A stretch of 64,000 nt of DNA from a virus, in UHGV virus genome UHGV-1374671; one strand, written 5' to 3'. This document shows positions 2,441-15,873 of this stretch, in pieces (the first letter of the stretch is position 1; the number at the start of each line of letters is the position of its first letter). A model generated the notes under the pieces. That model had not been told where the DNA came from and searched no databases. It saw only the letters and a program-made list of their open reading frames with translations. The position numbers were made by a program, and so were the translations under genes.

Positions 2441-4450
2441 ATGTTCAAGTTATCGAGAGTGCGTTTGCACAACATCTGCCAGTACGACGATGCGGACATT
2501 CCGATAGAGGGCGGACTGACTGCTGTGTGCGGCAAAAACGGGGCTGGCAAGAGCAACTGCATCAGGGCCATCGCCTACGGGCTCACCGGATTGGTGGACG
2601 GTTCCTGGGGCAATCAGCAGAAGCTCCAGAAGGACGGCACCGCCGATCCTGGCTGGGTTGAGGTGTACCTGACAGGAACCGAGGATCTGGTCGTCAGGAG
2701 ATTTTCTACTTCGAGTACAAAATTTCCGGATCGGATTCTGAAGACGGTCAACGGAGTGGTAACCGAGGTCGCTGTCCGCCGCAAGGAGGTGGACAAGTAC
2801 ATGACGGGCGTGTTCGGCATTCCAGTGCCGCTCATGTTCCAGATCATGTGGGGAAGACAGGGCAGGCTGGACGATCTGCTTACGTCTCCTCCGGCGCTGG
2901 TGAACACGTTCCTGGCTGCGGTGTTCGACACCAAGAAGCTGGACAAGCTCAGAGAGAAGCTCAAGATCCAGATCGACACGATAGCTAACATCCCGGCCGA
3001 CAGCGTGACCCTGCTTGAGCGATACAAGGCCGAGCGGGAAGCGCTGCCGTCAGTGGAGAGCCTGGCGGCGTCACTGGAGTCCAGCAAGGCAGCTCTGCAT
3101 GATGCGGAGGCCAGACTGGAGGAGCTGAACGACACGATGAAAGCCGGCATCACGAAAGCGTCCCTGGATGGGTGCATCGCGATGTACACAGAAGAGCTTC
3201 AGACGTCCGAGAACTGGCTTTCCAGCAATCCTGAGACGCCTGAACCGTCTGTGCCGTCCATAGACGCGGCAACCGTTGATGTCAGCCTTGCAGGCGCTTC
3301 CAACGAGCTTTCCCAGCTGCAGAACCGGCGTAACCACACTGAGCTCACGCTGCGCAACCTGGAGGCAGGTCTTCCGGTCAAGAAGACCAATCTGCAGGAT
3401 CTTCGTGACAGCCATCAGTCTATTCTGGACAAGATGTCGGTGCACGACTCCGAGTGCCGGCTGTGCAAGGGCCATATCGTGGACCACGTCAGTTACGACG
3501 CAGCGCGCTGGAAGATGCTGACCGGGTACACTACCCAGGAACAGTACGAGAAGGCCTTCACGGGCAAGGAAAGCACCCTTCTGGCCGTTATAAGCGCGGA
3601 CGAGGATGCCATCCGGACAGCCAGCCAGATGATCGATGCCATGGATGTGGAGATCTCGAAGCAGCAGGAGCTGCTTCAGAACCTGTCGGAATTGAAGGCG
3701 GCACATGAGGCGCATGCAAGATGGTCTGCGACCAACGAGCTGCGAATCATGCACACCGAGAAATCTAAAGGTCTTAATGAAGCACTTGACAAGTACAGGT
3801 CGATGACTCCGATAGACGACTCGATTCCTCAGGACATCGCCGAGCTTTCCAGCAGAGTCGACCAGCTCAGAACCGAGGTGGAGACCAGGCAGAAAGCACT
3901 GTTCAAAACAGAGGCGGATTTGAAGTATTACGACAGGTCCATCCAGGACTACGAGAAAGCGGCTCAGAGCTACCAGATCAACTCAGAGGCCCGCAGAGTG
4001 CTCACTACGATCCGTGACATATACTCTCAGGGACGGGCCCAGGCCAGGTACCTGCGTTCCAAGATCCAGCAGCTGAACAGGCGGATCGGTTCCTACATGG
4101 AACAGACCGGCATGCCTTTCAGCCTGTATTTGAACGAGGACACCCACGTGTTCGAGTATGTGACTGACAGCGGATTCACGCACCCGGCAGCCCACCTGTC
4201 CGGAGCTCAGAAAAGCATCTCGTCTGTCGTTCTTCAGATGGCTATGCTGTCTGTAATCGGGCCCCAGATGAACCTGTTTCTCGTTGATGAGCCATCCGAG
4301 GCTCTTGATGATGAAAACAAGATTGTCATGAGTTCGTTGTTCCAGAGGCTCAACAACTTACTACCGTCCATGGACGGAGTGATGCTGATTGTGACCCGAG
4401 ATTCGCTCATTATTGAGAGTTGTGAAAATGTCATAAATGTAGGAGATTGA
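2441..4450 (+). CDS. Rad50/SbcC-like SMC-family ATPase (T4 gp46-like)
   Basis: N-terminal Walker A (CGKNGAGKS), long coiled-coil middle, C-terminal signature/Walker B (LFLVDEPSEALD). Adjacent to the Mre11-like gene. Confidence 0.8.
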   Translation: MFKLSRVRLHNICQYDDADIPIEGGLTAVCGKNGAGKSNCIRAIAYGLTGLVDGSWGNQQKLQKDGTADPGWVEVYLTGTEDLVVRRFSTSSTKFPDRILKTVNGVVTEVAVRRKEVDKYMTGVFGIPVPLMFQIMWGRQGRLDDLLTSPPALVNTFLAAVFDTKKLDKLREKLKIQIDTIANIPADSVTLLERYKAEREALPSVESLAASLESSKAALHDAEARLEELNDTMKAGITKASLDGCIAMYTEELQTSENWLSSNPETPEPSVPSIDAATVDVSLAGASNELSQLQNRRNHTELTLRNLEAGLPVKKTNLQDLRDSHQSILDKMSVHDSECRLCKGHIVDHVSYDAARWKMLTGYTTQEQYEKAFTGKESTLLAVISADEDAIRTASQMIDAMDVEISKQQELLQNLSELKAAHEAHARWSATNELRIMHTEKSKGLNEALDKYRSMTPIDDSIPQDIAELSSRVDQLRTEVETRQKALFKTEADLKYYDRSIQDYEKAAQSYQINSEARRVLTTIRDIYSQGRAQARYLRSKIQQLNRRIGSYMEQTGMPFSLYLNEDTHVFEYVTDSGFTHPAAHLSGAQKSISSVVLQMAMLSVIGPQMNLFLVDEPSEALDDENKIVMSSLFQRLNNLLPSMDGVMLIVTRDSLIIESCENVINVGD

Positions 4451-4469
4451 TAATCATGGAGTTGCAAAA

Positions 4470-5747
4470 ATGAAAATTGTACTGGCCGATACAGTGATCA
4501 CTGTGTTCGGGTGGCTCAATGTGATGGATCAGATCGGAAAGTACAAGCTGAAGATCCGCAAGACTCCTCAGGAGATCCGTGAGGAGAAGGAGATCAGACG
4601 ACAGCGGTACGGAAGCGACGCCCATAAGGTGAATCCTATGCGGTACGAAGATCGCACCGTGATCGCCAAGAATCCGTCTGATCCTACCATCGCATACTTT
4701 CTCCCAGGGCTGTGGCCACGGGTGAAAGGCTATCTGGATACGCAGAAGATTACATACGAAATCGAGGACAAAAGGGATCCTTCCATCAGGCCTGACCCGG
4801 ACTATTCAAAACTGGCCGGAGCGACATTGAGACCAGGACAGGATACCGCCTTGGCCCTGATTACGTCGTTGGATTGTGGGCTAATAAATACCAGCACGGC
4901 ATGGGGAAAAAGCCATCTAATATCTTTTATATGCAAGGTTTATCCCACGCTTAACATTGTCGTCACCACTGGATCCACCACGGTGGTCTCAACTCTGTAC
5001 GAATATCTGTGCAAGCAGCTGCCCGGCCAGGTCGGTTACCTGTACGCCAGGGGCAACACCACGCATGGAAAACGGGTGATTGTGACCACGCTGAAGTCGT
5101 TGCCGAACATCTCTCCTGAGCGCGTCCAGTTGCTGTTGTGCGACGAGTGTCATGCCTGCGGAGACAACGAGGCCGGCAGGGCAGTGTCCAAGTTTGTGTT
5201 CAGCCGCAGATTTGGATTCTCCGCCAGTCCGATCCGCAATGACGGCTCCAGAATCGTTATGGAGTCCATCTTCGGACCTGAGATCATGAAGATGACCTAC
5301 CAGGAGTCTGTTGACGTTGGAAACATCGTTCCCATGAAGTACCTGATGCTGCCTTGTCACAAAGGGCCAACCAGCTTGTGCGACAAGCCGGGCATGGACG
5401 ATGTATTCAAGAAGCGCTTCGGGTACTGGTGCAACTACAACAGGAACAGGGCTATTGTGGAACTGGTCTACGACATCAAGCAGGTGTATGAGGGCCAGAT
5501 TTTGATAATGGTCGGTTCACTGGAACACGCAATTCAGTTGCACATTATGCTGCCCTGGTTCAAGGTCGCTCATTATGGCGCAACTGACTTGGACGAACTC
5601 AAGAAAAAGAAGTTCTCCAAAGACAAATACTCCGACATTGACTTTTCTCAGTACAAGATGAGCCAGAAGCAGCTGGACATTATGCGGGCCGCCTTTGCAA
5701 AAGGTACGCTCAGGTACGTGATCTGCACCAAAGTGTTTAAACAAGGT
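4470..5747 (+). CDS. SF2 (DECH-box) DNA helicase, exon 1 (UvsW/RAD25-like)
   Basis: Motif I-like GKSHL and motif II LLLCDECH. The ORF stops at 5771 just before helicase motifs V/VI, which resume in 6035-6295. Confidence 0.7.
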
Positions 5748-6034
5748 AAACATCAATGCCTCGCAGCATAGGAATGTGCTGTCGTGAGCCGCTTAATTGC
5801 TGGGAACTCCGACCGGGTAATGCCGAGGACAATCAGCAGCGAAGTCCTGAAAAGTAGGAAACGTTCAACGACTATCCCTGCGGGGAGTACACGCAAGTGC
5901 GTGGAAACAGCGGCCACCCAGAACGGGTGAAGATATAGTCTGACCTTGCATGGTAACATGCAGCTGGATTAACAATCCGGGCTGAGCGTAACGAACTCAG
6001 TTGAACACAAAAGGTTGATTTTAAAGCACTTACG
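5748..6034 (+). other. Group I intron (~287 nt, no ORF) interrupting the helicase gene
   Basis: Exon 1 ends in U (ggT, 5747) and the intron ends in G (6034). Motifs V/VI (GVDVSGVE..QIPGRVARL) continue in frame from 6035. The intron shares blocks (gtgagccgc, aattgctgg, aatcagcagc, cagctggat-aa-ccggg-tgagcgta-cgaactca-ttgaaca) with the insertion at 10936-11290. Confidence 0.6.
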
Positions 6035-6767: not shown

Positions 6768-8226
6768 GGTTGAGCTGGCGTTCCTGTCCGTGATCGGATA
6801 TCCTGAACTCACTTCCAAGGCGCTGAAGCTGTGTGCTGACAAGGTGATCCTGTTCGATAAGAACACGCACCCTCATGTGAGCATGATGTGGTCTGTTTAC
6901 CTGAACACGTTGAAGAAGTACAAGAAGAAGTTCGGGTTGAAGGTATCCCATGATCTCATTGCAGGCGACCTGGACGAGGCGATCAAGAACGACGAGGACA
7001 TGCCTGAGGAGGTGTTGTCCAGTTGTGAGACCATTCTCAACCGACTGGTAACTGGTCAGCTGCCGTCCAGGGAGGAAGGCATCGCGTTGATCCAGTCTCT
7101 GGTGAACCTGGATGCCAACCGCAAGATCAGCGCCCAGGTGCTGAAGAACGCGGATCTGGAGGCCATCCAGAAAACCCTGGATTCGTCGAAGCGGGTCATG
7201 ACCATACTGGACAACACAGAGGATCTGAACAAGGGCAGGATCCTGTTCAATCCGTTCAATGAGATCCAGAACCTGGCCAAGCACGTGGTGCGGATCCCGA
7301 CAGGCATCAACTTCCTGGACATCGCATCCAGCGGTGGAGGCCGGTCCCAGGAGCTGTGGCTTCTTCTTGGTCCGTCAGGAGGAGGCAAGTCGACGTTCTC
7401 TGTTCAGTATTCCGCATCGCAGGCTCTGATGGGCAACAATACGCTGTGGGTCACTTACGAGCAGAGCATGGAAGGAGACTTGGCCGAGCGACTTATCGCC
7501 AACGTGACGGACTGCAGTCTGGATGACATCCGTGATATCGGGTTCGACAATTTGAGCCAGGATATCAGGAACAAGTTCTGGGCTGCTGTGAACGGCTCCG
7601 AGGAGCACCTGAAAGTGTTGGACATGACCAGAATGGAGTTCGACCAGGAAGATCCTGCCGATGACTCCGGCATCTACTCGGTATGGAAGCGCATCAAGGA
7701 GCTGAAAGCGGAGGGATGGAGCCCGAAGACGGTCCTCATAGACTGGTTCGGCGCAATGATGTCCATGATCGGAACTGTAACCGGTCAGGACTTGTCCAAG
7801 GCGTACAGGTTCCTGGCTCAGCATCAGATCGACATTGCCCGCAAGATGGTCAAGGACGAGGATATCATGTGCATCTTCACACATCAGACCGACATGCAGA
7901 CACAGCATGCCAGGCCGACCTATCCTCCCGACAAGACCAACTCGAAGGACATGAAAGACCTGTGCAACTACATGGACATCGTTCTCACACTTGGAAACAG
8001 GGACAAGAACGACATCCAGTATTTCAATGCGGCCAAAGCCCGTAAGGGCGCGTCCGTCCTGCAGACGGTGCAGCTCATTGGAGAGAAGGCCAGGTTCAAG
8101 AAAGCCGACGGCTGGCTTCCAAACCGGGATGGGAACTTCTACCGACCCTCGGATGAGTACACATCAGACGAGGACGACGATATACAAGACGAGACTGCAA
8201 GGTCGTATACAAGAGAGATCATGTAG
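6751..8226 (+). CDS. DnaB-like replicative DNA helicase (RecA-fold C-terminal domain)
   Basis: Walker A GPSGGGKST; DnaB-like LDIASSGGG..LWLLLGPSGGGKS; Walker B-like DWFGAM; acidic C-terminal tail. ATG 6751 is in frame; the upstream part of ORF 6604 is rejected. Confidence 0.7.
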   Translation: MQTLSKVELAFLSVIGYPELTSKALKLCADKVILFDKNTHPHVSMMWSVYLNTLKKYKKKFGLKVSHDLIAGDLDEAIKNDEDMPEEVLSSCETILNRLVTGQLPSREEGIALIQSLVNLDANRKISAQVLKNADLEAIQKTLDSSKRVMTILDNTEDLNKGRILFNPFNEIQNLAKHVVRIPTGINFLDIASSGGGRSQELWLLLGPSGGGKSTFSVQYSASQALMGNNTLWVTYEQSMEGDLAERLIANVTDCSLDDIRDIGFDNLSQDIRNKFWAAVNGSEEHLKVLDMTRMEFDQEDPADDSGIYSVWKRIKELKAEGWSPKTVLIDWFGAMMSMIGTVTGQDLSKAYRFLAQHQIDIARKMVKDEDIMCIFTHQTDMQTQHARPTYPPDKTNSKDMKDLCNYMDIVLTLGNRDKNDIQYFNAAKARKGASVLQTVQLIGEKARFKKADGWLPNRDGNFYRPSDEYTSDEDDDIQDETARSYTREIM

Positions 8227-8310
8227 TTTGGTTCGATTGTGACTTGACTTTTTTTCGTTTTGGTGTTATGTTGCGAACGAGCAACATAACCTGAACGAAG
8301 GAGGTCGGTC

Positions 8311-8712
8311 ATGAAACAACCCGAGTTCGAGAAGCTCTGTAAGGATCTGGCCCGCATATGGACCAGAAAAGACGGGGCCCTGGCGAAGCTGGGCAGCTGC
8401 TCTGAGAGCACTGGCTCGTACATCTTGTGCATCGGAGCGAAGAACAATACAGGGTTCTCCGCTCACTATTGCGTTGTGTGGGAAGGAGACAACAAGGCGT
8501 TTGAAGGCCGTCTCCATTCCATCGAACTCAGAAAATTCCTCACATCGAAACACCTCTGTTTCGCAGAGGTAACCACTTCACGCATGCTGGATCAGAACAA
8601 GAAAGGTCTGATCAACTGCTACGGAAAGAAGGAGTCGTGCTGCAAGCTGAACTGCTCTGTACGCGACAGGAAGCCGTTCCAGGTGACTGAGACGGTGGCA
8701 ACCACTCTGTAG
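8311..8712 (+). CDS. Hypothetical protein (Cys-rich)
   Basis: ORF preceded by a GAAGGAGG RBS. A 10-bp hairpin (gttatgttgc..gcaacataac) lies in its leader at ~8256-8285. Confidence 0.5.
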   Translation: MKQPEFEKLCKDLARIWTRKDGALAKLGSCSESTGSYILCIGAKNNTGFSAHYCVVWEGDNKAFEGRLHSIELRKFLTSKHLCFAEVTTSRMLDQNKKGLINCYGKKESCCKLNCSVRDRKPFQVTETVATTL

Positions 8713-8758
8713 CGCTCCCGGTATTGCCGGGCAGCGTGCATGTCCGGGAGGAAAGCAA

Positions 8759-9889
8759 GTGTTGAACAAACCACTCTATGACACGCTTGTGCGCATGTTC
8801 AAGCGTGTCGAAATCGCCAACGAAGGGCAGCATGCACGGGTCAGCAGGAAAGCGGGTACCGTGTCGGCGTGGTGTATTGAAAGGAACAACGAACACGGTG
8901 AGCAGTACCGTGTGAATTGTCCTTTCTGCGACGACCGGAACAAGCACCTCTACATTTCGTATCTGTCCTACATTCGTCCAGTCGTGAACGGTCAGGTGCT
9001 TCAGGTAGGCAAATTGAGAGCCCAGTGCTTTCGCAGAGGCTGTCTGAAGAAGATTGAGAACAGAGAATGGCTCGAAGGGCAGATCGCTATGTACAGGTTA
9101 GCTCTTGGAGCAGGTGCGGAAATTCCAAACATTGAAATCTCGGAAACAGACTCGGAAACCCTTCCCAGATACGAGGTGTCGGACGACATTTCCGTGGATG
9201 GGTTCAAGACATGGGTACCTGATTATGAGCCGATCACAGCGCAGTCCAGGAGTGACATTCTGGAGTACCTGGCGGCTCGTCGTGTGTCCATGGATGACGT
9301 GGAATGGATGAGACTCGGCTGGGGGCCTGTCAAGTCCCCGCGTTCAGGCAACTACCTGAACAACGGCAGTCCGTTCATTCTGATTCCGATGATACAGAAC
9401 AACCAAGTGAAGGGCATCCAGGGCAGGTGCCTTCCCCAGTACCTGAAGGAGGACGGCATCAAATACTGGATTCACCCTGCCTGCAGAAAACGTACTGTTG
9501 TGCTGAACATCGACATTGCCAGACAGCTCGGCCTTGGTGTCGTCTGTGAAGGCGCTTTCGATGTGCTCAGCATTGGTAAACCGGGCGTATGCACCTTTGG
9601 ACATACACCATCAGAAACGCAAAGGCGGTTGCTTACCACGTTCTCACAGGGCATCATATGGTGTCCTGACACGGACGTGACGCCGAGGCTGAATCCTATT
9701 CAGATCGCCAGGGAGCATGTTGCTGTCTGGAACGCGTCCAATGCGTTTCCGAAAGGTGCGCACGTCGTAGAACTGTCCCAGAAAGATGCCGGCAGTATGT
9801 CCCGGCAGCAAGTATGGGAGGAGATCGTTTCCCAGGTTCCTGCTCATATGCAGGACTTCCTGCTGGAGAGGATCATCCCAAACCTATAG
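8759..9889 (+). CDS. DnaG-like DNA primase (zinc-binding domain + TOPRIM)
   Basis: CPFCDDRNKHLY zinc ribbon; later VVCEGAFDVLS, a TOPRIM E..D motif. Confidence 0.7.
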   Translation: MLNKPLYDTLVRMFKRVEIANEGQHARVSRKAGTVSAWCIERNNEHGEQYRVNCPFCDDRNKHLYISYLSYIRPVVNGQVLQVGKLRAQCFRRGCLKKIENREWLEGQIAMYRLALGAGAEIPNIEISETDSETLPRYEVSDDISVDGFKTWVPDYEPITAQSRSDILEYLAARRVSMDDVEWMRLGWGPVKSPRSGNYLNNGSPFILIPMIQNNQVKGIQGRCLPQYLKEDGIKYWIHPACRKRTVVLNIDIARQLGLGVVCEGAFDVLSIGKPGVCTFGHTPSETQRRLLTTFSQGIIWCPDTDVTPRLNPIQIAREHVAVWNASNAFPKGAHVVELSQKDAGSMSRQQVWEEIVSQVPAHMQDFLLERIIPNL

Positions 9890-9906
9890 GAACAGAGGAG
9901 ATCGAG

Positions 9907-10935
9907 ATGCAAGACTTAGGCGTCGTCGACGTCAGCATGCGGCACTTTGTCGGGCCGGTTCACATCCGGGTATGGGAGCCCGGAGATCCGTTCCCGACAC
10001 TGGGGCCTTCCGTTGGCGTTGACACAGAAACCGAGCTGATCACGGACACGGTGAAGGACCCGCCGGTAGTTGTTACCGGCGTGTTCGACCCTGCGAACTC
10101 GAATTGCTGGATCGTTTACTGGCAGCATACCGCAGCGTTCATGCGGGAGCTGAACAAGCGCGACATCCAGCAGAGGTACTTCAACGTCGGGTTCGACGAA
10201 CAGGTGCTCGACAACGAGGACGAGGAGAAGAGCCTTCTGACGGCTGTCGACGCAAGGCGGGTGCGTGATATGCAGATCCGCATTCACCTGCACGAGATCG
10301 CCACGCTGGGTTGGATCCGAGGCAATCTGTACAACCTGGCGGACTGTGCTCTGCACTTCCTGAATGTGACGCTGGACAAGGGTGATCCGGACGACTACGA
10401 GAACTCTGCACGAATGACGTTTCGGCGGCATAATAAAGATGGGAGCGTTTATCGCATAACGGATGAACAGGCCAAATACCTGTGTTATGACTGCGCTTCC
10501 ACCTGGGGTCTCGGAGAATCGGTACCGGAACAGCCAACCGAGGTGGAACATACCAAGGGCATGATCGTCCTGGCACACATCAGCACCAACGGCATTCAGG
10601 TCGACCCTGTAGTGTTCGACGCCATGGAGGAGAAGCTGTTCAAAGCCAGGGACGAGGCCAGGCTTCGTCTGCTGGCGTTTGGATTCCCAGATCCGTACAA
10701 GGACGTCAAGAAGGAGGCCGCAGCCGAGCGTCAGCTTTTCTACTCGGAATACAAAAAGCTGTGTGAATCGGCAGGACTGGAGTGCCATCTCGGCATGGAG
10801 GAACAGACACTCGATGACGAAGACGAAACCGTCATTCAGGTTCCTAAAATACCAAAGAAGGACTCTCTCAGGCTGATGGTCTGCTACCTGTATCGATGCT
10901 TCACGTTCGTACACAATACCAAGAACGCGGCGTAG
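9907..10935 (+). CDS. Family-A DNA polymerase, exon 1 (3'-5' proofreading exonuclease domain)
   Basis: Exo I VGVDTETE, Exo II YFNVGFDEQVLDN, Exo III YLCYDCAS. ATG 9907 follows a GAGGAG RBS. The true 5' splice site may lie a few nt before the stop at 10933-35. Confidence 0.7.
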   Translation: MQDLGVVDVSMRHFVGPVHIRVWEPGDPFPTLGPSVGVDTETELITDTVKDPPVVVTGVFDPANSNCWIVYWQHTAAFMRELNKRDIQQRYFNVGFDEQVLDNEDEEKSLLTAVDARRVRDMQIRIHLHEIATLGWIRGNLYNLADCALHFLNVTLDKGDPDDYENSARMTFRRHNKDGSVYRITDEQAKYLCYDCASTWGLGESVPEQPTEVEHTKGMIVLAHISTNGIQVDPVVFDAMEEKLFKARDEARLRLLAFGFPDPYKDVKKEAAAERQLFYSEYKKLCESAGLECHLGMEEQTLDDEDETVIQVPKIPKKDSLRLMVCYLYRCFTFVHNTKNAA

Positions 10936-11366
10936 GTACCTTTGCGGCGTGAGCCGCATCGAAGAAGAAAGTGAATTGCTGGAAGCCTAAACCGGGAGTG
11001 TAGCCCGGCATGGTAATCAGCAGCCAATCAACCGGATCGCTAAACTGGATTCAACCATCCAGCATGCACCGGGGAAAAGGTTCAACGATCATCGGGGTGT
11101 CCACCTGATAAGCGGCCCCGTTAGCGTGCAAGCGTGCGCGAAGTGCTCCGTGACGGGAAACCGTCACGATGATATGATCTGTGCTACCCGAAAGGGATAG
11201 GAAGCCCCAGCCTGATCAGCTGGATAAGCCGGGTGAGCGTAGCGAACTCACTTGAACAAGAACCATGAGGTCTTATGAATCGACGTAAATTCTCACATTT
11301 ACGCTTGATATTGTTGACGTACATGCTATATTAGAACCAGGTACTATAATACACGGAAGTTTTGAA

Positions 11367-12473
11367 GTGATAAGCAGAGCTCATACAATCAAGCTGAAAC
11401 CCAATAAAGCACAGGCGATCATGCTGGCCAAGACGGCCGGTACTGCCAGGTATGCCTACAACTGGGGATTGGCCAAGTGGAATGAGCTGTACGAAGCCGG
11501 TGAGAAGTGCAGTGCTTACAGCCTGATGAAACTTTGGCAAGAAGGCAGACCTGACTGGGCATTGGAAGTGGGCGCTGCGTGTTTGCAGCGCCCGTTCATG
11601 CACCTGGAAGGCGCCTTCAAAGCGTTCTTCAGAGGACAGCGTAAGCACCCAACCTTTCACAAGAAGGGTTTGCGGGACGGGTTCTACGTCCCGAATACTC
11701 ATTTCAAACTCCGTGGTAACAAGGTTCAGCTACCCAAGTGCGGACTTGTCAGAATGACCGAGCGTATTCGTTACGCGGATGTGAAGGTTGTTTCTTCGGC
11801 AGTCAAGCACCAGGCAGACGGCTGGTATGTCGTAATCCAGGTCGAGCTTGAAGAGGAACACAGAACCGAATCCGACTCTTTTGTCGGAGTCGATGTCGGA
11901 TGTACCCAGCTCGCAACAGCGAGCGACGGTACGACCTGCTGCTCACCGGCCAAGCTCAAAGACCTGGAACGTCAGCTGAAACGTAGACAGCGCTTGCTGG
12001 CACGCAAAGCCAAGGGCTCCAACAATCGAGCGAAAGCGAGATTGAAGGTAGCCCGTACCTGGCAACGAATCAACAATATCAAACAAGACACAGCTCACAA
12101 GTTCACTGCACTCATTGCCAAGAACCACGGCACTGTTTGCATTGAAAAGCTGGATGTGAAGAGTATGCAATCAGGAGACAACGCCCTCGTAAGAAAGGGC
12201 GTGCATAACTCCTGCATGTCGGAAATCCTGAGACAACTCAAGTACAAGTGTAACAACTTTATTGAAGTTGACAAGTATTTCCCGTCCAGTAAGACTTGTT
12301 CGAACTGTGGGCACATAAACGCTGAACTGACCCTTGGGGATCGCACGTATAATTGTCCGGGCTGCGGACTGAAAATCGACAGGGATCTGAACGCAGCGTT
12401 GAACCTCCGTAAGGAGGGTCTGAGGATTTACACGGTGGGTCACACCGGCAGTGCCTGTGGAGTTGCCCGGTAA
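11367..12473 (+). CDS. tnpB: TnpB (IS605/OrfB family RNA-guided RuvC-like nuclease)
   Basis: RuvC-I GVDVG, RuvC-II IEKLD, zinc finger CSNCGH..CPGCG, RuvC-III DRDLNAALNL. Catalytic residues are intact. 368 aa. Confidence 0.85.
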   Translation: MISRAHTIKLKPNKAQAIMLAKTAGTARYAYNWGLAKWNELYEAGEKCSAYSLMKLWQEGRPDWALEVGAACLQRPFMHLEGAFKAFFRGQRKHPTFHKKGLRDGFYVPNTHFKLRGNKVQLPKCGLVRMTERIRYADVKVVSSAVKHQADGWYVVIQVELEEEHRTESDSFVGVDVGCTQLATASDGTTCCSPAKLKDLERQLKRRQRLLARKAKGSNNRAKARLKVARTWQRINNIKQDTAHKFTALIAKNHGTVCIEKLDVKSMQSGDNALVRKGVHNSCMSEILRQLKYKCNNFIEVDKYFPSSKTCSNCGHINAELTLGDRTYNCPGCGLKIDRDLNAALNLRKEGLRIYTVGHTGSACGVAR

Positions 12474-12570
12474 CGGGCGGCGCTGAAGCAGGAAGATTCA
12501 TAAGAATCGTGAACAGAACCACTCGGACGAGCCTGACGAGCTCCAGCTGTGTGCCGAGAACGTCAAAATC
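12474..12570 (+). ncRNA. Candidate TnpB omega-RNA (reRNA) scaffold and guide region, plus the 3' end of the intron
   Basis: Inference from TnpB biology: the omega-RNA is encoded at the 3' end of tnpB and the right element end. No structure check was done. Confidence 0.3.
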
Positions 12571-13464
12571 GTGTGCGAAATGGAGAAACCGTCACTGCGG
12601 AAAGACGCCAGGAACATGTACTCGAAGCTCCTGGAGGACTACGAGATCATGGCGTTCGACCAGGCCACCAAGGGAATCGTCATGCCGTCGTTTGTGGCGC
12701 ATCTGATGGAGCACTACAACAAGCAGCGTGATTCCGGAGAGGTCGCAGCAAAGGGCTACGACTTCGGAGCCGCAGTCAAGTACGCCAGCGAGTACATCGA
12801 CGATCATCCTGAATGGCTGTCGAAATCCGAGCAGATAGGTCCCAGCAAATTCTTCCAGAATCATGTGAAGGGCATCATGGAGGCCAATCCGAAGCTGGAG
12901 CTGGAGACCACTCCCAAGAGTGGGGCAGTCAAGCTGACACTCAAGGACAAGTGGCGGTTGGAGGACAACGGCATCAAGGACAAGTTCTTGGATGCTTACA
13001 TTGACTTCAATCATTGCCAGAAATATTTAAGTACCTATATGAACCGTTTGTTCATCAAAGGGGATAATCGGATACATGCCAGGTTCACAAATATTTTGCG
13101 GACCGGACGTACCAGCTGCACCGGACCTAACTTGCAGAATTATCCCAGCAGGGACAAGGTGTTTCCGTTGAAGAACATCTTCTGTCCTTACGATGGCATG
13201 CTGTTGTGTGCTACCGACTTCTCGTTTATTGAGTTGTGTGGCTTTGCCCAGTCCTGTTACAGCAGGTTTGGGTTCAGCGTTATGCGCGACGTCATCAACG
13301 CAGGTCTGGATCCGCACCGCTGGTTCGCAGCGGTGATGGACAAGCTGATCAAGCCGGACCTGACGCACAAGGACGACCCGAAATGGGTCGCGGAACTGAA
13401 AGGATTTTTGAAAGCAAATGTAGACGATTCAAGACGACAAAAGGCCAAAATGGCCAATTTCGGT
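12571..13464 (+). CDS. Family-A DNA polymerase, exon 2 (fingers/palm, motifs A and B)
   Basis: Motif A CATDFSFIELC and motif B RRQKAKMANFG. The frame is open from 12487, so the true exon start may be earlier. Exon taken to end at NFG (13464, U) before the intron. Confidence 0.65.
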
Positions 13465-13718
13465 CGACCATCAAGGCCGAATTAAAACTGCGGAATTAAG
13501 CGGGGAACTCTCATTGAGACGATCCGAACCGAAGCCTGGAAGGGATTCCAGTCAGGGACAGAGCATACCGGCAGGGGAAGAACTCCCATCAGCCGACACG
13601 AGGCCGCAGCAACTGGAGAAACAACTCTGGTTGAAAAGATATGCCGAGCTGTGTGGCGACATACAGAAGTGCTGGATAAAAAGCCGGCACGATAACAAAA
13701 CTGTTTCCAGGAGCACTG
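13465..13718 (+). other. Group I intron (~254 nt, no ORF) in the DNA polymerase between motifs B and C
   Basis: Starts caccatcaaggcc like the helicase intron (aaacatcaatgcc) and has the related block agtgctggataaaaagccgg. Ends in G at 13718. Splicing gives NFG|GVKTFYRNCRESGVHLTMEEAEF, which aligns to Pol I NFGVLYGMSAHRLSQELAIPYEEAQAF. Confidence 0.6.
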
Positions 13719-14339
13719 GGTGTCAAGACTTTCTACAGGAACTGCAGGGAGTCCGGCGTACACCTGACCATGGAAGAAGCTGAATTCATGCGGGATGCGT
13801 GGATCAGCACTTTCAAGGAAATGAAGTTCCACATGAAGCCAGAGAAGTTGCGTAACTCGACAGGGTTCGGCAACCAGTTCGGCTTCAGGGACGACGAAGA
13901 AGAGTACATCGACCCGTCCGAGCAGGACAGGCAGTTGTACAGGGCAAAATTAATTAATGGAATGGTTAGAAACAGGTGCAGTTTCAATGCGGCCTGTAAT
14001 ATGCAATTCCAAGGGCTCGTGGCATTTGGCGCGAAGCTGGCAGGCTGGAATCTAGTAACTCACGGATACGAACATAGAGTAGTCAATTTCGTACACGACG
14101 AATTTCTGTACTGCCTGTATCCGGAGGAGCTCAAGGTCCACATCCCTGTCATTGAGCGCCTGATGATCGACGGGATGAGAGTTGCCATCCCGGATGTTAA
14201 AGTAGGAGTGGAATCCAGCGTCATGCGTCATTGGGACAAGAAGGCGACGGAATTCCACGACGTGAAGTGGGACGAGCAGGGAAGACCGCTCATTGAAGAG
14301 CCGCTGTTCGTCCAGAGTGTTCTCAAAATGGCCCAGTAG
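13719..14339 (+). CDS. Family-A DNA polymerase, exon 3 (motif C, C-terminus)
   Basis: NFVHDEFLY is motif C (HDE). The O-helix-proximal EEAEFMRDAWISTF is also present. Confidence 0.65.
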   Translation, partial: GVKTFYRNCRESGVHLTMEEAEFMRDAWISTFKEMKFHMKPEKLRNSTGFGNQFGFRDDEEEYIDPSEQDRQLYRAKLINGMVRNRCSFNAACNMQFQGLVAFGAKLAGWNLVTHGYEHRVVNFVHDEFLYCLYPEELKVHIPVIERLMIDGMRVAIPDVKVGVESSVMRHWDKKATEFHDVKWDEQGRPLIEEPLFVQSVLKMAQ

Positions 14340-14367
14340 GGCGAACGAAAACGAAAGGTACGCAAGA

Positions 14368-15873
14368 ATGAAAACGACAATTGGTGCAACCACCCGCAGC
14401 AACCGCAGCGAGTACGTATCCATCGTCAAGAAGGAGTTCCGCAAGGGCTACACCATCCCCATGATTCCCTATCAGACGAACGGCATCATCAGCAAGTCGC
14501 TGTGGCCGTCCCGGGATCAGATGGTCCGGATCGTTCCAGGATACGATCCCGTCACCGGCCAGGTGTTCAGCCAGAACATCAACGCCAACGAATACTGCAC
14601 GGACGCCAACCTGCAGGACTACCTCAGCGACACGTTTATCCTGTCCACCGTTGTGAACGGATTCGGCGCTTCCCGTCAGACCTTCATCACTGACTTCGCT
14701 CCCGGTTCCCCGGACGAGGAGAAGTGGGGAGGCGACACTCCGATTCACTGGTTTATCCGTAACATGTTCTACAGCGTGAACAGCAAGAGTAAACGGAAAC
14801 CCAAGTACCAGCCCATCAATGAATGGAACATCTGGTGCGGCAAGAACGGGACCATTTCGTTCGACAAGGCTGCCCTCATGTTCCAGGCGCTGATGTACAA
14901 GATCAACGGCAAGGAGATGCAGGACGAGAACGAGCAGCCGCTGGTGGACGAGTATGGCAATGCGTTGCCGCTGTTCGGCATTGTGACCATCGACAACGTG
15001 GCATCGATCAACCTGCTGATGCAGGCGCTGGTCGAGCCTACGAATCCTGCCCTGCCGCTGGATGCCATCAACAATAACAAGTATGGGGGTCTCGCTGAAA
15101 TGAACGGCAATATGTTGTTCCTGAACAGCGTGAAGGATCCGGAATCCGGCAAGAGCATGATGCGCCCGTCCGTTCAGCTTCCCGGCAAGGGCTGGACTGC
15201 GACACCGCTCCCGTTGTCCGAGGATAATGTTAAGGCGCTGTGGCGTCCGTGGGAGCAGATCCTGCACTACATGACCGCTGAGGAACAGCTGAAGCTGCTG
15301 GCTGCGGAATTCGGAGCTGACACCGTGAACTATCTGATCGGTACTGATCCGAAGTTCGCGGATCTGCAGATGCCGGATGAAATTGCCAAGGCAGGTTTCG
15401 GCCGGTATGCGCAGTTCTGCGGCGGTGTGTCTGTACCGCAGAAGATCACGCTCCAGCAGAACACTGCTCCGGCTGCGAATGGCGGACTTGCTGCTCCCGG
15501 GATTGCGATGCCTGGTGCCAGTGTGGCTATTCCCGCCGTTCCTGCTGCTCCTGCCGCTCCTGCTGCTCCGGCAGTTCCCAAGGCTGCTGGCTTGGCTGCT
15601 CCCAGGCCGGCCGTTCCGGTGCCTCCATCCCCGGTTGCAAAGCCGGCGGTATCGGTGCCCGGTATGGCTGTGAGTAACGCAGTCGATCCCAAGAAGATCG
15701 CCGAGGAGGTCAGGAAGATGAAGGCGGCTGGAATCAATACCCCGGTTACCCCGGCCTCCAGAGAGCTCGAGGATCAGGCTGCCGCAGCTGCCACGCTGCT
15801 CGAAGGAGATGACGAGGATCTGGAACAGGTTGTTCCCGAGTTTGTAGAAGACCCCACTGAAACCGAGGAATGA
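14368..15873 (+). CDS. Putative ssDNA-binding protein (gp32-like), with Pro/Ala-rich linker and acidic C-terminal tail
   Basis: Position between polymerase and recombinase. PAAPAAPAAPAVP low-complexity linker and acidic tail EDLEQVVPEFVEDPTETEE, as in phage SSBs. No diagnostic OB-fold motif was checked. Confidence 0.35.
   Translation: MKTTIGATTRSNRSEYVSIVKKEFRKGYTIPMIPYQTNGIISKSLWPSRDQMVRIVPGYDPVTGQVFSQNINANEYCTDANLQDYLSDTFILSTVVNGFGASRQTFITDFAPGSPDEEKWGGDTPIHWFIRNMFYSVNSKSKRKPKYQPINEWNIWCGKNGTISFDKAALMFQALMYKINGKEMQDENEQPLVDEYGNALPLFGIVTIDNVASINLLMQALVEPTNPALPLDAINNNKYGGLAEMNGNMLFLNSVKDPESGKSMMRPSVQLPGKGWTATPLPLSEDNVKALWRPWEQILHYMTAEEQLKLLAAEFGADTVNYLIGTDPKFADLQMPDEIAKAGFGRYAQFCGGVSVPQKITLQQNTAPAANGGLAAPGIAMPGASVAIPAVPAAPAAPAAPAVPKAAGLAAPRPAVPVPPSPVAKPAVSVPGMAVSNAVDPKKIAEEVRKMKAAGINTPVTPASRELEDQAAAAATLLEGDDEDLEQVVPEFVEDPTETEE

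Follow-up and report, generated by a model that had tools for sequence, protein, structure and literature searches.

An IStron-like Group I Intron Carrying tnpB Interrupts the Family-A DNA Polymerase Gene of Virus Genome UHGV-1374671

The family-A DNA polymerase gene (polA) of the virus genome UHGV-1374671, of which a stretch of 64,000 nucleotides (nt) was analyzed and is referred to here as the window, is interrupted by a 1623-nt insert on the sense strand of the gene that we identify, with good confidence, as an IStron, in which a group I intron is joined to a module encoding TnpB and its guide RNA (Table 1). Removal of the insert restores the polymerase frame, both of its ends contain covarying RNA structures, its tnpB gene is under selection, and the composite is found as a unit at many unrelated sites. 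An IStron had been proposed for this position in a first-pass annotation of the window, and this identification stands, with all of the parts present and the unit recovered at 43 sites.

Boundaries of the Insert in polA

The polymerase gene is present as three open reading frame (ORF) pieces, 9814-10935, 12571-13485, and 13770-14339, the latter two of which are recognized by Pfam as DNA_pol_A. The ORF map and Pfam agree with the first-pass annotation in placing an in-frame stop at 10933-10935 and a polymerase ORF downstream of the insert. A database search with the joined exons returned many uninterrupted homologs of 840-870 residues that cover 98-100% of the query. Among known phages, a megablast search of 9800-14400 against GenBank gave no match, and the best polymerase matches are ~27% identical. 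Aligned across the junction (marked here by a caret), the homologs read ...LRLMxxYLY^NxSDxP..., and the window reads ...CYLY followed by 13 unrelated codons and a stop at the end of exon 1 and ...NREQ^NHSDEP... around the 3' junction. This alignment places the junction after tat (10891-10893) and before aac (12517-12519), and the insert is therefore 10894-12516, preceded by U, ending in G, and a multiple of 3 in length. The limits given previously, 10936-12570, are thus off by 42 nt and 54 nt: the final 13 codons of the apparent exon 1 ORF (10894-10935) are intron sequence and not polymerase, and the 54 nt at 12517-12570 (NHSDEPDELQLCAENVKI) belong to polymerase exon 2 and are conserved in uninterrupted homologs.

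A close relative lacking the element provides independent confirmation of these boundaries. The ENA contig L025, which shares 91-95% DNA identity with the window, is colinear with 8225-10892 and then directly with 12517-13234, and its junction reads CTTTAC^AACCATTCGGACGCGCC. L025 is an empty, IStron-less allele, such that the element shows presence/absence polymorphism between close relatives. The joined exons agree with both the uninterrupted homologs and L025, and splicing would join ...TAT^AAC... to give one continuous polymerase (...CYLY^NHSDEP...). No second copy of the element is present within the window. Unless the element is recognized, gene callers split the polymerase and other genes of these phages.

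The P1 Helix and Its Covariation with Insertion Sites

The most informative feature is the P1 helix. Left to itself, RNAalifold matched the last four bases of the exon, together with the base that opens the intron, to a GGNNC block lying ~40 nt into the intron, with a U·G that does not vary at the position predicted for splicing. In the window, exon GUAU pairs with an internal guide, GUAC, at 10936-10939 (G10890-C10939, U10891-A10938, A10892-U10937, and, at the 5' splice site, U10893·G10936), the pair C10894-G10935 extends the helix into the intron, and the loop of ~40 nt holds a conserved TACACA. For a census of insertion sites, metagenome contigs were scanned with a 23-nt invariant core string, and the splice site was set by conserved intron blocks, not by pairing. 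The census gave 43 distinct sites, located on contigs of related phages and in metagenomes; at 40 of them, all four exon bases, U·G included, pair with the internal guide of their own copy, as compared with 9.7 fully paired sites on average, and 18 at most, when guides are shuffled among copies. Six exon 4-mers are seen (GTAT, GGAT, GGTT, GAAT, GAGT, and CTAT), with T at -1 in 40/43 flanks, G at -4 in 38/43, and variable -3 and -2 positions.

Two other candidates for P1 were rejected: UACCUGU/GUAGGUA, for which the predicted junction creates a stop codon, and UGUAU/GUACA, which uses the invariant TACACA block and does not covary with the flanks. A sub-family of copies (L101, L107, L110, L121, L124, L128, L130, L133, and L136) has a very short P1 loop, in which exon^CAAYTAGG plus the guide replaces the ~40-nt TACACA loop; the exon/guide pairing rule is kept.

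The Predicted Group I Ribozyme

The 5' ~370 nt of the element appear to fold as a subgroup-IA-like ribozyme that would catalyze splicing. The helices follow the order P1, P2, P4-P6, P7, two hairpins, P8, P7', P9, and two more hairpins, and the pair of hairpins between P7 and P3', P7.1 and P7.2, is the layout of subgroup IA. From ten copies, RNAalifold predicted 90 pairs, 49 of which show compensatory changes; scored on the same sequences from which the structure was derived, 98% of ribozyme cells are paired, versus 32-46% with partners slid by 1-3 columns, and the 49 pairs with double changes compare with 5-9 in the slid controls. Covariation is found in P2, P5a, P6, P7, P7.1, P7.2, P8, P9, and the two 3' hairpins, with P4/P5 invariant. 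Homologous copies score above 50 bits with the Rfam group I model, Intron_gpI (RF00028), at 51.3 (L014), 57.8 (L049), and 63.9 (L013/L015), and the intron of L014 is 76% identical to the window intron over 348 nt.

TnpB and the Middle Region

When both strands are checked, tnpB is the only conserved ORF of the element. Pfam recognizes HTH_OrfB_IS605, OrfB_IS605, and Cas12f1-like_TNB in its 368-residue product (E = 5e-15, 1e-23, and 7e-18, respectively). Over its entire length this product can be aligned with ISDra2 TnpB (E = 1.6e-44) and with PDB entry 8iaz (E = 3.3e-43). The sequences GVDVG, CIEKL, and DRDLNAA align with the RuvC residues D191, E278, and D361 of ISDra2 TnpB, and both CxxC pairs of the zinc finger, in CSNCG and CPGCG, are placed as in ISDra2, in keeping with the intact RuvC and zinc finger motifs noted in the first-pass annotation. 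All 12 compared copies are exactly 368 codons long, with pairwise ratios of nonsynonymous to synonymous substitution (dN/dS) of 0.07-0.18. The gene is intact and under purifying selection, and these alignments predict an RNA-guided RuvC nuclease that would cleave DNA. The N-terminal 150 residues of TnpB cluster by flank class, as expected if recognition of a target-adjacent motif (TAM) co-evolves with the internal guide.

The region between the ribozyme and tnpB contains a hairpin at 11284-11303 (CGTAAAT/ATTTACG) and, at 11305-11332, the promoter-like TTGATA-16-TATATT noticed at the outset, which matches at 10/12 positions and has a TG before the second hexamer (sigma-70-like). This middle stretch is 95% identical between the window and a related locus, L002. 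In the intron-less relatives L005, L007, and L009, which lie in tRNA arrays, similarity begins ~20 nt upstream of the hairpin. An internal TGAACAAGAACCA (11253-11265) is similar to the 3' splice site and exon 2 (TGAACAGAACCA; TGAACAG^AACCA, 12510-12521). A relic splice site or target duplication was considered for this block and rejected, since the internal block is unchanged in copies with unrelated 3' exons and CCACGAGG is part of the left end of the insertion sequence (IS). The resemblance is probably a coincidence, and G11260 may be a cryptic 3' splice site.

The Predicted Guide-RNA Scaffold

Only 43 nt of the element follow the tnpB stop codon. Every copy ends ...GAAGATTC(A/G)TAAGAATCGTGAACAG, and similarity is gone at the next base. 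The last 121 nt comprise four stem-loops (12404-12418, 12433-12447, 12454-12492, and 12495-12508) with 33 pairs, 13 of them with compensatory changes; 99.5% of the scaffold cells are paired, versus 39-50% in slid controls, the structure again being scored on the sequences that gave rise to it. A long-range pairing joins UUUAC (12427-12431) to GUGAA (12509-12513). In the stem at 12454-12492, which has an inner stem at 12462-12481, the outer CCUG/CAGG with GGAG..UGAAG resembles part of RAGATH-18, a motif that constitutes the core in TnpB guide RNAs of the IS607 type (PMC11061315); the match is sub-threshold (24.8 vs 44.9 bits, E = 0.087). The final ~125-140 nt are retained in each of three derivatives without tnpB (L042, L026, and L036). 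Together with the covariation, these derivatives indicate that the scaffold, of ~120-140 nt (from about 12378/12396), overlaps the 3' end of tnpB, and they support the functional extent of the right end. The ~100-nt tail after tnpB (12474-12570), to which an omega-RNA had at first been assigned, is instead mostly exon 2. The last base of the scaffold, G12516, is also the terminal G of the intron, and by analogy with TnpB and IStron guides, which are read from the right flank (10.1101/2023.11.20.567912; PMC11061315), the sequence from 12517 onward, 16-20 nt of exon 2, would serve as the guide.

The miniature in L042 (~985-1508, ~525 nt) consists of the intron, left end, and scaffold; those in L026 (~9628-9902) and L036 (~1254-1528) are 275 nt long and have the 5' third of the intron fused to the scaffold, without the catalytic core. 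Scaffold (right-end) fragments also occur apart from complete elements, in L005 (3262-3719), L012 (3-38), L027, L029, L037, L041, L042 (147-179), and L045. Several of them have tRNA genes of related phages on either side, and some are at locus ends, where upstream sequence is not included. These lone fragments could be remnants or free-standing guide-RNA loci.

Table 1. Features of the interrupted polymerase gene and its insert, in window coordinates
Feature	Position	Strand	Sequence or description	Evidence
polA exon 1 (3'-5' exonuclease region)	9907..10893	+	ends ...C-Y-L-Y; GTAT (10890-93) is the P1 5' strand and presumed TAM	homolog alignment; L025 colinear to 10892
P1 helix	10890..10939	+		RNAalifold, unprompted; two pairs covary; site census
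Whole element (probable IStron)	10894..12516	+	CGATGC......GTGAACAG	L025 empty allele; boundaries common to homologous copies
Group I ribozyme part	10894..11260	+	ends TTGAACAAG	Rfam Intron_gpI; covariation
Ribozyme helices			P2 (10944-57), P4-P6, P7 (GAUCAU/AUGAUC), P7.1 and P7.2, P8, P9, two further 3' hairpins	
Junction and IS left-end region	11261..11366	+	includes tnpB leader	hairpin; promoter-like site; relatives
tnpB	11367..12473	+	GTG start, 368 codons plus TAA	Pfam; PDB matches; conserved length; dN/dS
Guide-RNA (omega/reRNA) scaffold	12396..12516	+	overlaps tnpB 3' end	covariation; RAGATH-18-like; deletion derivatives
polA exon 2 (thumb/fingers, motif A, start of motif B)	12517..13464	+		Pfam; homologs; L025
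Exon 2 start, predicted 16-20-nt guide of unspliced transcript	12517..12536	+	AACCACTCGGACGAGCCTGA (N-H-S-D-E-P)	

Spread of the Composite as One Unit

A search of IMG/VR with the TnpB protein identified 15 loci on phage contigs of 38-194 kb, with TnpBs 52-88% identical; several of the contigs hold more than one copy, and two of them (190 and 194 kb) hold four tnpB loci each. The ~370-nt intron sequence lies upstream of tnpB in 10 of these 15 loci, at 73-86% identity. In every related copy, a T precedes the element, whose first bases are C(G/A)A... and whose last are ...GTGAACAG; beyond this point the copies diverge. The outer boundaries and the junction between intron and IS (...TGAACAAGAAC...) are identical across the 43 sites, and the composite has therefore spread as one unit, with the 5' splice site as its left end and the 3' splice site as its right end. 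Precise excision gives long ORFs back in most of the ten copies tested, including L003, at a second polA site, and L014 and L006, at two sites in one 231-residue gene; PHROGs assigned no function to the other interrupted genes. In L002, the element occupies the same polA codon as in the window. The two elements are 84-95% identical and their exons 60-64% identical, from which it follows that the element is much younger than the split of the two polymerases. Two contigs of the family are labeled human gut metagenome, which suggests a gut origin for at least some members.

Affiliation of the TnpB Module

The nearest bacterial TnpBs found, 59-60% identical, are on two small metagenome-assembled genome contigs that also carry the intron. 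The next, at ~35% identity, belong to Helicobacter and Campylobacter elements of the IS607 type, with a serine recombinase upstream of tnpB. An IS605/IS608 affiliation, assumed from the Helicobacter matches, was rejected on account of these recombinases, and the IS200/605 (TnpA-Y1) affiliation implied by the first-pass annotation is not upheld; both the tnpB relatives and the RAGATH-18-like scaffold point toward IS607. TnpBs from Clostridia (Tissierella, Tepidibacter, Alkaliphilus, and Clostridium aciditolerans) are ~30% identical; they lie behind a group I core, without TnpA, and end ...TTGAACAG. Published IStrons are often without TnpA (PMC13565253), and the failure to find it here does not therefore exclude membership among the IStrons.

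Proposed Mechanism

In the mechanism envisaged for the window element, P1 would pair exon GUAU with the internal guide GUAC, and the 3' splice site would follow G12516. Either the pre-mRNA or a transcript begun at the internal promoter-like site would serve for expression of tnpB, and TnpB would bind a scaffold formed by the final ~120-140 nt of the element. Transcripts that escape splicing, or that start internally, would run into exon 2 and in this way supply the guide. Splicing would sever the scaffold from the guide, and splicing and guide production would therefore compete for each transcript; the tension between the two anticipated in the first-pass annotation fits a 3' splice site that coincides with the scaffold end, as published for IStrons (10.1101/2023.11.20.567912). 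In co-infecting relatives whose polymerase allele lacks the intron, GTAT adjoins AACCACTCGG..., and TnpB with its guide would cut this allele; recombinational repair from IStron-bearing genomes would then copy the element in, a process that amounts to RNA-guided intron homing.

A further, tentative proposal, for which we see a real but lesser chance, is that the family is a phage-specific IStron lineage that has lost its transposase and now persists solely as a homing intron programmed by RNA. In that case the internal guide, the TnpB N terminus (which takes it as a TAM), and selection for splicing would all read the target 4-mer, and the guide RNA would read the 16-20 nt downstream; a swap or mutation of the ~50-nt 5' cassette would retarget the element. 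If this is true, cassette retargeting would explain the six target classes and at least 43 sites, and the element could act as a weapon in phage-phage competition by cutting essential genes of intron-less rivals.

Several observations weigh against the identification as a functional, homing IStron. The covariance-model search suggested in the first-pass annotation gave matches in the window that are sub-threshold for both RNAs. For Intron_gpI, a local 1.9-kb scan scored 26.3 bits (E = 3.7e-4, 10884-11200), below the gathering threshold of 50, and RAGATH-18 likewise fell short at 24.8 bits; homologous introns, at 51-64 bits, do pass. A convincing P3 was not found, the best candidate being a 4-bp AGUG/UGCU; P3 is mostly gapped in the Rfam alignment. 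Splicing of the insert is itself a prediction from sequence, and the putative TAM is read solely from flank conservation, inseparable from the P1 requirement. With an IS607 serine TnpA as the one query, tblastn gave no match in the element itself, elsewhere in the window, or in the phage loci that bear the IStron, Y1 TnpA not having been searched. The left-end hairpin, earlier annotated as an IS200/605-type subterminal hairpin, is present, and this role is not established, there being no matching hairpin at the right end and no TnpA found. Finally, L025 differs from the window junction at -1, at -4, and at guide positions 6 and 14. The window/L025 pair would probably not home today, and the differences could reflect resistance or merely divergence.

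Alternative Explanations

The best surviving alternative, which we nevertheless consider unlikely, is that two nested elements are involved, an ORF-less polA group I intron and a later, independent TnpB IS near its 3' end, with the IS alone mobile. ORF-less introns of this type do exist, as in the helicase intron at 5748-6013, intron-less modules of tnpB and scaffold are found in the tRNA arrays of L005, L007, and L009, and both left-end variants are found with and without the intron. These observations are countered by the constancy of the junction and outer boundaries over 43 sites and by the tnpB-deleted derivatives, which retain the intron 5' end together with the scaffold. Nesting probably describes how the family began, when a TnpB element entered the 3' tail of an intron lacking an ORF, and not its present state.

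It is more improbable still that the element is decaying or domesticated, with an intron that splices and a TnpB that is no homing nuclease and is perhaps a regulator, inherited by vertical descent only. No TnpA was found with the one serine TnpA query, the only empty allele found, L025, is mismatched in both the flank and the guide region, and a regulatory role is conceivable given that TnpB binding represses splicing (10.1101/2023.11.20.567912). This reading is, however, difficult to reconcile with the intact RuvC D/E/D residues and zinc finger, with purifying selection across the 12 compared copies, with a divergence between the window and L002 that is far lower in the element than in the host gene, and with many insertion sites per genome, including the four tnpB loci in each of two contigs. 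Lastly, a split polymerase, in which the insert is never removed, two or three polypeptides assemble, and TnpB is a passenger IS, is barely credible: the break does fall between the exonuclease and polymerase domains, where split family-A enzymes could work, and a GTG at 12571 opens the downstream ORF, but a start there would lose 18 residues conserved in uninterrupted homologs, the insert measures an exact multiple of 3 and is preceded by U and terminated by G, the P1 covariation over 43 sites is without explanation unless splicing occurs, and a second insert (13465-13703) lies in motif B, where splitting the protein would break the active site.

Comparison with Known Systems

IStrons were first described in 2000. 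A 2014 survey includes elements of the Clostridium botulinum phages c-st and D-1873 (Tourasse 2014; PMC4227781). For CboIStron, reported in 2023, TnpB cleaves the donor joint, and splicing and guide function were shown experimentally to be mutually exclusive (10.1101/2023.11.20.567912). IStrons, phage copies among them, and the conflict between splicing and guide production are thus established. A 2026 review merely hypothesizes that TnpA-less IStrons spread by intron homing (PMC13565253). What is added here is a phage-borne lineage in which no TnpA was found, with several classes of target and guide that co-vary and with clear population-genetic signs that it has spread horizontally in essential genes.

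Similar to the window element, group A IStrons, such as CdISt1 of Clostridioides difficile (PMC4227781; PMC13565253), comprise a 5' group I intron and a 3' tnpB-type ORF, have T as the last exon base with a P1 U·G, end in ...CAG, and make no target duplication; they are also multi-copy, lie on the sense strand of protein genes, and often lack TnpA. The group A signature, a T-rich pentanucleotide target (TTGAT/ATTAT/TTTAT) and a TCAG end, is shared here only as T at -1 and CAG: the target is a variable 4-mer that covaries with the internal guide, and the end is ACAG. Group A elements reside in Clostridia chromosomes, whereas the present family is found in large uncultured phages, has its ~35%-identical bacterial TnpB relatives beside a serine recombinase, and carries a RAGATH-18-like scaffold.

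Group B or IS607-type IStrons (BcISt1, CboIStron, and CbISt3/CbISt4 in c-st/D-1873; 10.1101/2023.11.20.567912) have a TnpB/guide module that the one seen here resembles and share a 3' splice site that is also the scaffold/guide junction, with splicing and guide function mutually exclusive; some members are on phage or plasmid genomes, and TnpB-only copies exist. They differ in having a GG target (TGGG/AGGG/GAGG), a G-C splice pair, and a CGG end, in place of which the window element has U·G and ACAG, and in that a serine TnpA was not found in the loci examined here. The splice boundaries of the window element fit neither of the two groups.

Phage group I introns with protein homing endonucleases (T4 td/I-TevI; a GIY-YIG intron in L025) resemble the window element in occupying an essential DNA-metabolism gene, in presence/absence polymorphism among close relatives, and in their expected spread by double-strand-break repair during co-infection. 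The difference is that the nuclease here is predicted to be RNA-guided, with the downstream exon as its guide, and the cassette is therefore found at dozens of unrelated sites rather than at one fixed homing site. Relative to stand-alone TnpB systems (ISDra2, PDB 8EXA; ISFba1, PMC11061315, linked to PDB 8IAZ), TnpB aligns over its full length with the ISDra2 catalytic residues, and the right-end scaffold, flank guide, consecutive stem-loops, and long-range pairing to the 3' end are alike. The present element differs in its shorter protein (368 residues vs 384-410), in having a ribozyme as its left end, and in an overlap of scaffold and ORF, which is the IS605 arrangement, whereas the guide RNA of ISFba1 is wholly downstream of the gene.

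The family is a natural test bed for RNA-guided intron homing, with dozens of sites, six matched classes of target and internal guide, empty and filled alleles of an essential gene in near-identical phages, and an element younger than its host genes. A single short exon motif is subject both to the demands of a ribozyme helix and, probably, to those of a nuclease TAM, a double constraint that bears on how TnpB/Cas12 ancestors diversified specificities akin to the protospacer-adjacent motif.

Neighboring Introns and Repeats

A gene upstream of polA contains the ORF-less group I intron at 5748-6013, the sole window match above the Rfam threshold (88 bits, 5738-5963). Its exon junction, ...TKVFKQG^VDFKAL..., reads like a superfamily 2 helicase motif, the boundaries being drawn from sequence only. 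The blocks that the first-pass annotation reported as shared between this intron and the first ~370 nt of the IStron are present as short blocks and one 47-nt 3' block (5961-6007 vs 11209-11258); by sequence alone the likeness is weak (nhmmer E = 0.33, 3' block only), and the pairwise MAFFT alignment of the two introns is unreliable at the 5' end. The helicase intron ends a few bases past the shared TTGAACA block.

The second polA interruption, 13465-13703, is 239 nt long and lies inside motif B (...AKMANFG^FPGALGV...). It follows ggT13464, ends at G13703, and has a length in keeping with the change of frame, 1 to 0; no match to it at E<10 was obtained with Rfam. L025 has this motif B insert plus ~921 nt with a 341-residue ORF, and its GIY-YIG intron (3380-4610) follows motif A (ATDFSFIE^), at window position ~13234/13235, encodes a 301-residue GIY-YIG endonuclease, and has a core 77.5% identical to window 10965-11084 over 120 nt. 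In other homologs (P0007), the break follows TGRTSCSGPN, and introns are therefore found at several positions among these polymerases.

Seven 26-nt palindromic motifs (TTTTCTACT..AGTAGAAAA) occur in the window, at 2698, 10732, 20098, 37610, 45418, 57451, and 63829; they may be phage regulatory or terminator sites, and one is inside polA exon 1. A perfect 29-nt direct repeat (CAAATAGAGCGATTTTGAGGCCCACATAG) is found at 730-758 and 1021-1049, with a spacing of 291 nt.

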